From NCBI GenBank assembly GCA_963727775.1, contig CAVSHB010000002.1:416001-480000 (forward strand): a DNA stretch of 64,000 nucleotides. Direction: 5' to 3'. Below, piece by piece: positions 2,338 through 60,115 of the stretch; position 1 is the first letter of the stretch; every line of letters begins with the position of its first letter. Position numbers and translations under genes: made by a program. The notes under the pieces are model-generated. The model ran no database searches. It was given only the letters and a program-made list of their open reading frames with translations, and had not been told where the DNA came from. The stretch comes from an uncultured Nitrospiraceae bacterium (lineage in GTDB: Bacteria; Nitrospirota; Thermodesulfovibrionia; Thermodesulfovibrionales; SM23-35).

Positions 2338-2889
2338 TTATTTTATCCTTTTTGAAATTGCCTTAAATTCTTCTGTCCCCGCCATCCTCAATAACTGAAA
2401 CAAGACTGTTTCCGCAGACGTGATAACGGCCCCGGCGTCACGCATAAATGCAATGCCTGTTCCCCAATTTTCTTTTGTCCTCGAGCACACCGCGTCCCTG
2501 ACCAAATGCACATTGAGCCCGTTATGTAAAAGCCCGATGCAGGTCTGAAGGACACATATATGGGTCTCCATCCCCGTAAGTATGACGGTTTTTTTATTGA
2601 GCTTTTTGATCTCACTGGTAAATGCAGGTTCATCACAGCAGCTGAAGGTCATTTTTTCAAGCGGCTTATATTTCGGTAATGCGTTCCTTATCTCTTCTAC
2701 AGTCCGCCCGAGCCCTTTCGGATATTGTTCGGTTACTACAACAGGGATGGCGAGTAACTTTGAAAGCTCGATAAGATGAAGACAATTATTTACAACCGCC
2801 TCCCTGGCCTTCATTATGTTTGCCAATTTTTCCTGTATGTCAACAACCAATATAAAGGCGTCATCTTTATTGAGGAAGAACTTTTCCAT
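2338..2889 (-). CDS. Isochorismatase-family hydrolase
   Basis: VVDIQEKL, TEQYPKGLG, GMETHICVLQT motifs. Confidence 0.9.
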   Translation of the reverse strand: MEKFFLNKDDAFILVVDIQEKLANIMKAREAVVNNCLHLIELSKLLAIPVVVTEQYPKGLGRTVEEIRNALPKYKPLEKMTFSCCDEPAFTSEIKKLNKKTVILTGMETHICVLQTCIGLLHNGLNVHLVRDAVCSRTKENWGTGIAFMRDAGAVITSAETVLFQLLRMAGTEEFKAISKRIK

Positions 2890-3083
2890 TCAGTTTCCTT
2901 TCGGGCAAAGTTGCAAAAGATTTAAACAGTATAATCAAGTCTTTTATAATCAATCAATACCGCCTGAAAAGGTGAGATCTCCTGGCATCTCGTTATTGAG
3001 TATTTCAGCACTGCTTGTAGGAGACAGGAACGATTCTGTATAATCTGTTGTTCAGTATAGATGATTCATGATGCATGGAATAG

Positions 3084-3188
3084 CAGAGCAGATGCAGTAT
3101 CAGAGCGGCTTTATCCCGATTTGATCGGGATACCTCGGAGGTCCGCAAAAGCGGACCGAGAATGAGCGATGATACTGCATCTGCTCTG
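3084..3188 (+). repeat. Structured dispersed repeat family 1, copy A (three-way junction)
   Basis: Perfect 19-bp IR 3084-3102/3170-3188; inner hairpins TATCCCGAT-ttg-ATCGGGATA and CTCG-gag-GTCCGC-aaaa-GCGGAC-CGAG; core shared with copies at 16766, 30075, 40324. Confidence 0.9.
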
Positions 3189-3207
3189 AGCGAGGAAAAT
3201 ATTTATA

Positions 3208-3981
3208 ATGCAGGTTAGAATGCGGAAACCAAATGATAATCTATCTTGTGATCTCCTTAACTCCTGGAAGGACAATATCTCTTTTGTCCTTGTGGAGCCG
3301 AAGGACCCCGGCAATATCGGTGCTTCTGCAAGAGCTTTGATAAATATGGGGTTCCCGAATCTTGAACTCGTTAATCCCGGACATTTCTTTACCAGCGAGG
3401 CCAAACAGATGGCCTGCCAGGGGGTTAAGGTCCTCGAAAATGCAAGGGTCCACAAGAGTTTCAGAGAGGCTGTTGAGGACAAGAATCTTGTTGTCGGTAC
3501 CACAAGAAGGCTGGGGAAGAGGCGGGGGCTTATTGTGCCGTTGAAGGAGAGTGTGAAACGAATTCTCACCGCTTCTATAAAGAATAAAGTTGCAATCCTG
3601 TTCGGCAGGGAACGCAACGGCTTGACCAACCGGGAAATAGAGGAATGCGGACTTTTAGTAACGATCCCCTCCGACCCTGATACCCCGTCGCTGAATCTTG
3701 CACAGAGTGTCATGCTGGTCGCCTACGAGCTCAGCCAGAAATCATATAAGGCCGATCTGCCGGCTATGATTAAGCATAAAGAACTTGAACCGCTTTATGC
3801 CCGAATCGAATCGACCCTCAAACTGCTTGAATTTATCCCGCGGGGCGACGCGGACCTTGAAAAGAAAATCCTGAAAAATCTCAAACACCTCATCGGCAGG
3901 GCAGGGCTGACAGAGTGGGAACTCAAGATGATGTACGGAATCTGCACTCAAGTGGAGCATAAGGTAAAAGAGAAAATATAA
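3208..3981 (+). CDS. trmJ: SPOUT RNA methyltransferase, TrmJ/LasT family
   Basis: VLVEPKDPGNIGASARA, ILFGRERNGL, SLNLAQSV motifs; start codon uncertain. Confidence 0.85.
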   Translation: MQVRMRKPNDNLSCDLLNSWKDNISFVLVEPKDPGNIGASARALINMGFPNLELVNPGHFFTSEAKQMACQGVKVLENARVHKSFREAVEDKNLVVGTTRRLGKRRGLIVPLKESVKRILTASIKNKVAILFGRERNGLTNREIEECGLLVTIPSDPDTPSLNLAQSVMLVAYELSQKSYKADLPAMIKHKELEPLYARIESTLKLLEFIPRGDADLEKKILKNLKHLIGRAGLTEWELKMMYGICTQVEHKVKEKI

Positions 3982-16765: not shown

Positions 16766-16887
16766 GACCGTGGCGTATATAGTGTTTTCGCTCATTCTCG
16801 TCCGCCTCGGCGGACTCCGAGGTAAATTTTGTTCCGTTAAATCTGCACAGAATTTAAATCCGCGAAAACACTATACACGCCATGGTC
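16766..16887 (-). repeat. Structured dispersed repeat family 1, copy B
   Basis: 26-bp IR with 2 mismatches (16766-16791/16862-16887); minus-strand core GCGGATT-[stem]-CCTCGGAG-TCCGCCGAGGCGGA-CGAGAATGAGCGA. Confidence 0.88.
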
Positions 16888-30003: not shown

Positions 30004-30074
30004 AACTGATATGGTAAAAACTATAAAGTCAAATGTGAGTCTTCCCCATGTTATTTACAAACGGCGAGATATAG

Positions 30075-30195
30075 GCGAGGATAGAGTATTGGAGCGGATT
30101 CTTTTGCCGATACTCAAATGCATTATGATAATAATGAGGCAAAATCCCTCGGAGGTCGGAACGACCGAGAATGAGCTCCGATACTCTATCCTCGC
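30075..30195 (+). repeat. Structured dispersed repeat family 1, copy C
   Basis: 21-bp IR with 1 mismatch (30075-30095/30175-30195); core GAGCGGATT-[TTTTGCC..GGCAAAA]-CCTCGGAG-GTCG-gaa-CGAC-CGAGAATGAGC. Confidence 0.88.
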
Positions 30196-30261
30196 TTTAC
30201 CCGATATGGATTGTTAATAATCGGACTTAAAGTGAATTGCTTTCGTGCAGACTGAGATGGT

Positions 30262-40323: not shown

Positions 40324-40438
40324 ACCAACAATGGGGGACACAGTATTTTCGCTCATTCTCGGGCTGTCGCCCTCCGAGGTAAATTCTTTCTTCGAAAGAA
40401 TTTAAAACCGCTCAAATACTGTGTCCCCCATTGTTGGT
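40324..40438 (-). repeat. Structured dispersed repeat family 1, copy D
   Basis: Perfect 25-bp IR 40324-40348/40414-40438; minus-strand core GAGCGGTTT-TAAATTCTTTC-gaa-GAAAGAATTTA-CCTCGGAG-GGC-gaca-GCC-CGAGAATGAGCGA. Confidence 0.92.
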
Positions 40439-40558
40439 TACGGAAAATTGCCTTAACTCAAAAACTGCAAATAGAGAAATGTACCGATGAATATCGGGAT
40501 TGTGAAGAAATTATTTTTCGATACATTATCTGCATTTTTCGGGTTATACTAAACTGCG

Positions 40559-50617: not shown

Positions 50618-50678
50618 AAAACAAAAAACCGCATCCTTGTCAGCCCCGACTGATCCGCGGTGGCGGAAAGGATACGGT
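50618..50678 (-). terminator. Riboswitch expression-platform terminator
   Basis: ACCGTATCCTT/AAGGATGCGGT stem followed by TTTTTGTTTT directly before the thiS ATG. Confidence 0.7.
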
Positions 50679-50684
50679 CGTCTT

Positions 50685-50778
50685 CCCATTTCCTCCGTCG
50701 GCATTACCCGTATCAGGTTCGCGGGGTCTCTTCACTATTAATAGAAGACTCTCAGGCTTTGGGCCTCCCCCAGGGTTC
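50685..50778 (-). ncRNA. TPP riboswitch aptamer
   Basis: Minus strand GGGG..CTGAGA..ACCC..GAACCTGAT..GGTAATGCC..CGGAGGAA upstream of thiSGECD. Confidence 0.93.
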
Positions 50779-50918
50779 AACTTAAGTATAAATGAGGGTT
50801 TTCATCGAAGTCAACGGGCGGACAGCGTTATAACCGCTCCCAAAAACAAAAAAGGAGGCGGTTGATGATCAGTTTGTGAGCAAAATGGGGCAAAGACCAT
50901 ATAGCTTGGAATCGGAAT

Positions 50919-59902: not shown

Positions 59903-60011
59903 CAGCCTGAGAACGGCTACCTCCGGCACCCAGGAAAAACGCTTACCGTTGCTTCCTTCCGGACCTCACGGGGTTCACATCCACCTGCTGCGAAGGGCCG
60001 TCCCCAGGCTG
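59903..60011 (-). ncRNA. ffs: Signal recognition particle small RNA
   Basis: GAACCCCGTGAGGTCCGGAAGGAAGCAACGG core; closing stem CAGCCTG/CAGGCTG; upstream of dnaX. Confidence 0.92.
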
Positions 60012-60024
60012 CAGAAAGACAAGA

Positions 60025-60115
60025 TGGCGGAGAGAGTGGGATTTGAACCCACGGTACGGTATTAGCGTACACACGATTTCCAGTCGTGCTCCTTCGGCCG
60101 CTCGGACATCTCTCC
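60025..60115 (-). tRNA. tRNA-Ser (anticodon GGA)
   Basis: GGAGAGA acceptor stem, CACGA-CT-GGA-AA-TCGTG, long variable arm, GGTTCAAATCC, 3' GCCA. Confidence 0.96.

Follow-up and report, generated by a model that had tools for sequence, protein, structure and literature searches.

The element that occurs four times in the window (the whole stretch of 64,000 nucleotides analysed here, from an uncultured Nitrospiraceae bacterium) is probably, though by no means certainly, a MITE with IS1380-type ends, likely moved by IS1380 transposase, that carries a TwoAYGGAY-like three-way junction folding on one strand; its hairpin loops likely bound CsrA ancestrally and were lost in this genome along with csrA. 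According to this model, the resident IS1380 transposase would mobilise gene-less copies of ~158 bp via their common ends, while template switching would keep the arms of the basal stem (P1) matched and flip interiors. The structured core would act as an RNA whose ancestral hairpin loops bound CsrA, and both the GGA loops and csrA would have been lost in the lineage of the source genome.

A preliminary description of the window had reported four intergenic copies in which P1 encloses an invariant junction and two hairpins, P2 and P3. All four were recovered at their positions and with this layout (Table 1), and the pairs at the top of P1 were as described, being tandem G·A in copies A and D and Watson-Crick in copies B and C. 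The copies fold with z-scores of -7.5 to -12.1, on both strands, and none of the shuffles (0/200) folded equally well. A gapped core pattern found three of the four copies against 0.00 expected (100 shuffles), missing copy C because its P2 exceeds the gap limit, and a covariance model whose training set included copies A, B and D returned exactly these four in the window, at 79-86 bits, with only 19-26 bits on their opposite strand. The genes on either side of copy A, one with an isochorismatase domain and one for a SpoU-family methyltransferase, are functionally unrelated, as had been noted for the neighbouring genes in general. The called ORF start of the SpoU-family gene overlaps the right MITE end of copy A, and no terminator-like site was found around this copy.

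Table 1. Positions of the four copies, the parts of copy A and other features in the window
Feature	Position	Strand	Basis or remark
Copy A, P1 closing the three-way junction	3084-3102 with 3170-3188 (element 3084..3188)	+	layout, folding, covariance model
Copy A, tandem-GA half (3103-3104) and junction head GCGGNTT (3105-3111)	3103..3111	+	
Copy A, P2 hairpin, without GGA loop	3112..3132	+	layout, folding
Copy A, CCTCGGAG	3133-3140	+	core pattern
Copy A, P3 tip, without GGA loop	3141-3156	+	
Copy A, CGAGAATGAGC, then tandem-GA half	3157-3167, then 3168-3169	+	
Copy A, decayed 159-bp MITE frame	3056..3214	+	scored against IS1380 end profile
Copy B	16766..16887, core 16790-16863	-	IS1380-type ends not detected
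Copy C, long-P2 subfamily	30075..30195, core 30094-30176	+	
Copy C, partial MITE frame	about 30045-30226	+	left end 8.4 bits
Copy D	40324..40438, core 40351-40411	-	ends of this MITE family not detected
Isochorismatase-domain gene, left neighbour of copy A	2338..2889	-	unrelated
SpoU-family RNA methyltransferase gene, right neighbour of copy A	3208..3981	+	unrelated
Second MITE family, beside copy D	40457-40543	-	also at L216:7575-7750
TPP riboswitch	50672-50781	-	ordinary (Rfam at gathering scores)
SRP RNA	59907-60004	-	ordinary (Rfam at gathering scores)
tRNA	60028-60115	-	ordinary (Rfam at gathering scores)

Transposon ends, target duplications and empty sites

The source genome (G000, 3.43 Mb), in which the window spans C2:416001-480000, contains 72 copies by word search and at least 73 by the covariance model (150 of 592 candidates scored), with a weak replication-strand bias (25 vs 40). 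At this scale the P1 arms fall into subfamilies and are not unrelated, contrary to the impression from the window: one 19-bp arm is common to 38 copies, and copy A is a member of a second subfamily. An intact copy measures about 155-165 bp (typically ~158 bp) and has 19-bp inverted repeats at its termini. These repeats lie 40-50 bp away from the core, on its outer sides, and correspond to the ends of resident IS1380 elements. Four full 1650-bp elements of this family are present (PF13701, E~1e-153), and their four transposase genes are intact (NCBIfam NF033539, 409 bits; cut-off 180). One of them, at C1:632430-634080, encodes a transposase of 448 aa; an example of an intact 158-bp copy is C3:470087-470244. 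The earlier statement that no cognate enzyme was identifiable in the window is not supported at the level of the source genome, which has these elements with matching ends.

For scoring, an end profile was made from the eight ends of the four IS1380 elements, and the 99th percentile of random windows served as the cut-off. At least one IS1380-type end was found in 56 of the 72 source-genome copies and both ends in 26. Perfect 4-bp target duplications flank 12 of the 26 two-ended copies against 3.75 expected, a count reached in 0 of 20,000 flank shuffles. The flanks of the full IS1380 elements are matching in two cases (TTAG/TTAG, CTAA/CTAA) and mismatched in two (TTAG/CTAG, TTAG/CTAA).

To look for empty sites, public contigs were aligned to locus L216, a 19.5-kb region that contains four copies. 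A contig of run X2, from a related population, skips 162 bp at one intact copy, equal to the 158-bp copy plus the 4-bp duplication, and a second contig of the same run joins 2783 to 3137 across a pair of copies, keeping the 3-bp spacer between the two duplications; run X5 likewise lacks that pair. Flank BLAST inside the source genome gave no clear empty sites. Since the empty sites lack the whole element, both P1 arms included, P1 was not made from the target, and the proposal of insertion into palindromes or of inverted target duplications is not supported. The preliminary description had also set the element apart from a normal MITE and had seen no flanking direct repeat. Intact copies have the terminal inverted repeats, 4-bp target duplications and precise empty sites (locus L216) of an IS1380-type MITE, and we infer that the IS1380 transposase likely moves it in trans.

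The window copies themselves are worn: copy A combines a near-threshold right end with normal length, copy C has one end, and copies B and D have none. The right end of copy A scores 7.2 bits (cut-off 7.9) and is followed by TTAG at 3215-3218, and its left end, preceded by TCAG, is weak at 1.6 bits. For these four, a MITE origin would follow from membership of the family.

Several loci bear traces of further events. Two MITE copies in the source genome (C1:672592 and C3:134093) have IS200-like Y1 elements inserted at the same point in their right end. At C4:4093 in the same genome, a MITE left end is followed by the two P1 arms, which have no core between them and are joined directly through a 6-base word common to both, a form that is most simply explained as a hairpin-promoted deletion. 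GC-rich palindromes of another repeat type sit inside P2 at five loci (L010, L013, L018, L043 and L347), and P2 therefore accepts insertions. The second MITE family found beside copy D has ends that resemble another multi-copy IS1380-like group in the source genome (18 PF13701 matches, E about 1e-27), and contigs of runs X2 and X5 run across the site of its L216 copy without it.

Folding strand and turnover of the stems

The core folds on one strand. On the strand reading GCGG...AATGAGC, G·T outnumbers A·C among the mismatches of P1 (76 vs 21 in 68 source-genome copies and 129 vs 34 in 92 copies from elsewhere, the copies not being independent in either set); these counts omit copies without an ungapped P1 (4 of 72 in the source genome and 33 of 125 elsewhere). 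Within one P1 subfamily the numbers are 55 and 13. The G·T excess can also stem from strand-biased deamination. In an alignment of 40 sequences, 94% of cells pair, and two-sided changes are found at 17 of 18 P1 pairs and at 4 of 4 P3-tip pairs; the top G-C pair has become A-T in one group of metagenome copies. The CTCG/CGAG helix never varies, in part because the sequences were collected with those words. The suggestion of a structured RNA, possibly protein-binding, is supported as regards a dispersed family that preserves its fold on a single strand.

Some of the matching between stem arms probably has a mutational origin, perhaps in template switching, which according to PMC8794818 can make and keep hairpins. 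Both P1 arms have changed together 6 times, against about 1.3 expected (2 of 40 copies left out of this analysis), and the core is reversed inside its ends in 4 copies, compared with 20 in the usual sense. At L242, in the planctomycete G301, the two flanking genes are convergent and share their final 10 bases, and P1 overlaps the closing codons of each, as expected from a template switch. That stem covariation in TwoAYGGAY-type repeats can come from template switching calls for caution in such analyses.

Distribution, GGA loops and the role of the junction

A GTDB scan yielded the core in at least 125 stretches, mostly from Nitrospirota and otherwise, by record title, from Desulfobacterota, Planctomycetota, Patescibacteria, Gemmatimonadota, Latescibacterota, Omnitrophota and Gammaproteobacteria. 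Within the phylum sample the core was present in 27 of 301 genomes, and 26 of the 27 belong to a single order. Elsewhere, copy numbers are 116 in G301, 57 in G323, 46 in G310 and 37 in G302. Three matches on viral contigs, all without P1, were taken as chance. IS1380-type right ends are present at 16 of 78 Nitrospirota loci and at 0 of 36, 0 of 27 and 1 of 25 loci of other groups, a test from which 10 of the first 128 loci had been excluded because they matched by chance or came from contigs that were probably mis-binned. An IS1380 match was obtained in 13 of 44 genomes and in none of the copy-rich G220, G178, G202 and G278.

G313 has the core inside elements of 193-195 bp. The 13-bp ends of these elements are identical in sequence to the ends of an IS66-family element of 1729 bp. 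The latter, at L503:1343-3071, has a single ORF and is flanked by an 8-bp duplication, and its family label rests on Pfam. IS66 ends start with GTAA and are accompanied by 8-bp duplications. Such a duplication is perfect in 6 of 13 core-bearing IS66-type copies (G313 and metagenome). Being found within IS1380-type as well as IS66-type ends, the core behaves as cargo of at least two transposase families. It is not needed for movement, since core-less derivatives exist, one of the three 63-bp examples in G313 having a perfect 8-bp duplication. Matches to the IS66-family 13-bp end number 154 in this genome (L519-L548), forming MITEs of 63 to 223 bp. Further, different outer ends surround the core at L061, L358 and L108/L316/L318, with a possible 9-bp duplication at L358. 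No clear excess of ends or duplications was seen in G301, G302 or the Patescibacteria loci.

In many relatives, P2 and P3 both end in CA(N)GGANG-type loops, which fit published CsrA sites, the CsrB repeat and the RsmE hexaloop, with the sequences CAGGA(U/A/C)G and ANGGAN (PMC7652899). The loops were compared with csrA in 52 related genomes, chosen because they hold the element. GGA occurs in the P3 loop in all 26 csrA-positive genomes (326 of 388 copies) and in 8 of the 26 genomes without a csrA match (79 of 514 copies), the other 18 having it in 0 of 370 copies. One exception, G250, is 96% complete and has GGA loops in 15/17 without a csrA match; the other GGA-bearing genomes of this kind are mostly of unstated completeness. 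Many loops in the csrA-positive G316 and G317 read CACGAYG. GGA is present on both hairpins in 18 of 21 copies from G302/G305/G310, and in the P2 loop of 61 of 89 metagenome copies picked for their P3 loop. The source genome, in which csrA and fliW were not found, has a centred GGA in 0 of 63 P3 loops and GGA in both folded loops of 1 of 60 copies.

Loss of the loops is not confined to one lineage. A quick one-gene UvrC tree places the GGA-less Nitrospirota in three separate groups, one of which clusters with csrA-positive families at a support of 95, and further csrA-less, loop-less cases are provided by four Patescibacteria and by G301, where the loop is reversed (TCC in 25/30). For the question of CsrA sites, the several separate lineages that lack both csrA and the loops amount to a series of natural knock-outs. 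At all three loci inspected csrA sits inside a flagellar cluster, so the loops could really be tracking some other factor linked to motility. The loops likely point to CsrA binding in the ancestral element.

The junction letters remain intact in lineages without loops and csrA. Loops and junction are separable as two constraints, and the family yields a small, defined RNA. Where the flanking genes in the source genome are co-directional, the folding strand usually runs against them (31 opposite vs 5 same with one ORF caller, 30 vs 3 with another) and is hence seldom part of operon mRNA. Sense is likewise avoided by other GGA-less Nitrospirota (22 vs 5, p 0.0015) and in G301 (5 vs 1); no bias was detected in GGA-less copies of other groups (7 vs 6) or in GGA-bearing sets (12 vs 9; 6 vs 11), all counts using gene strands from simple ORF calls. 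A junction that is kept, together with sense avoidance, after loss of csrA and the loops leaves room for a second activity. A more far-reaching proposal, which we regard as rather unlikely, would have a portable RNA module, kin to TwoAYGGAY, captured repeatedly by the ends of unrelated DDE transposons and scattering CsrA decoys, while its junction performs a second, CsrA-independent activity (cleavage or binding of a conserved factor) and is kept out of operon mRNAs even without CsrA, Patescibacteria included.

Sense avoidance in the GGA-less lineages could also be read as the mark of a catalytic or RNase-targeting RNA module that harms the operon when read in sense, with the GGA loops secondary. 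The nearly fixed junction letters amid helices that all vary would suit such a module, and related MITEs alter mRNA stability according to PMC3184786. We nevertheless judge it quite improbable: the GGA-bearing sets avoid nothing, no known self-cleaving ribozyme in Rfam matches even at E up to 1-10, the invariance is partly built in by collecting most copies with junction words, and the gene strands depend on the simple calls mentioned above. Still less probable, in our estimation, is that the core is inert baggage in the source genome, present in the founder MITE and copied along, with template switching alone keeping the stems matched. The core-less derivatives (C4:4093 here and the three in G313) and the ability of template switching to make and keep hairpins agree with passive carriage, but this process alone favours no G·T over A·C on one strand, and it would leave unexplained why the junction persists from phylum to phylum even as P1, P2 and P3 are replaced.

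A different origin is implied if the core and P1 form a REP-like ssDNA element, spread by an HUH (RAYT-type) or Ssn-type nuclease that reads the junction, to which the IS1380 and IS66 ends were later additions. We hold this to be unlikely, albeit with several observations in its favour: end-less copies are abundant in other phyla (among them the 116 of G301), their P1 arms are all different (31/31), the junction outlives csrA loss, DNA folding is strand-biased too, and the reverse strand, TCATT-stem...AANCC, resembles the NTS/SRM hairpins cut by SsnA as described in PMC11893778. However, no recurrent nuclease or transposase family emerged among 1380 ORFs beside 344 copies, and Pfam searches on 106 + 34 neighbouring ORFs gave no dedicated partner, one phage integrase lying about 1.3 kb away. 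UvrC is the sole GIY-YIG match in the source genome, the small GIY-YIG genes of relatives adjoin ordinary SRM hairpins instead, the SsnA-like strand is not the one favoured by G·T, and loop conservation tracks an RNA-binding protein. The HUH/RAYT or GIY-YIG partner envisaged in the preliminary description was therefore not found beside the copies. An autonomous core-flanked gene was also considered and rejected, the ORFs between 20 close pairs being housekeeping or unassigned.

Relation to known repeats and RNAs

At gathering scores Rfam had no match to the element in the window, E-value scans of 20 and 13 loci gave no family-level match on it, and the literature searched, which took in few subscription papers, contained no description of this family. 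A Twister-sister motif, considered for a word resemblance on the reverse strand, was discarded; it had no Rfam match, and the reverse strand is not the favoured one. RAYT-associated REPs or REPINs were set aside as well, the long Y1 ORFs among 22 Y1 matches in the source genome lying several kb from any copy. CGTC REPs and NTS-SRM repeats with Ssn (PMC3733652, PMC11893778) are similar in the TCATT-stem...AANCC arrangement on the reverse strand and in being dispersed, intergenic and sometimes paired. In contrast to these repeats, the present element is branched and three times longer, misfits the SRM pattern and does not flank small GIY-YIG genes, and assignment to an NTS/SRM repeat with Ssn nuclease was rejected on the last two grounds. 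Small GIY-YIG (Ssn-like) genes flanked by ordinary SRM hairpins do occur in Nitrospirota relatives (L170, L171, L149, L155 and L174).

Read as an IS1380-ended MITE with a structured core, the element has much in common with bacterial MITEs such as ERIC, Correia, YPAL/RU-2 and bcr1, which as described in PMC3184786 are <200 bp, intergenic and without transposase, with terminal inverted repeats, target duplications and a long stem-loop. It is unlike them in having IS1380-type or IS66-type ends and an interior that is better conserved than the ends and common to MITEs of different transposase families. The best score for YPAL/Ysr224 (RF02770) in 8 genomes was 22.6 bits (cut-off 70). With the IS1380 family (NF033539, PF13701) it shares matching 19-bp ends and YTAR-like 4-bp flanks in the source genome, whereas it lacks a transposase gene, and no part of the IS flanks examined corresponds to its interior. 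The Csr/Rsm sRNAs (CsrB, RsmZ; PMC7652899) resemble the csrA-positive relatives in their GGA-bearing hairpin loops. Here, however, there are two sites per unit in many dispersed copies on mobile DNA, and the loops are absent from the source genome.

The family works like TwoAYGGAY but falls outside RF01731 by score. Both place two hairpins on one long basal stem, contain tandem GA pairs and occur in many copies and in close pairs, and in csrA-positive relatives both hairpins have GGA-type loops; the ACGAY loop variant is also contained in the TwoAYGGAY seed alignment (PMC2864571). RF01731 has no match in the source genome; its best scores, on copies in relatives, are 26.4 and 24.9 bits against a cut-off of 43, and its sole sub-threshold match among five genomes falls on a copy of this family. 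The fixed junction words differ, however, and the window and source-genome copies lack the namesake loops. TwoAYGGAY is found in Pseudomonadota and Bacillota, and the present family in Nitrospirota, Desulfobacterota, Planctomycetota, Patescibacteria and others. CsrA binding has been proposed for TwoAYGGAY (PMC4333381; bioRxiv 10.64898/2026.09.22.753630), and the latter source states as open questions how repeats of this type multiply and whether their loops are CsrA sites. The mobilising ends of TwoAYGGAY are presented there as unresolved, whereas those of the present family are identified, and for the question of TwoAYGGAY multiplication the family supplies named transposases and precise empty sites.
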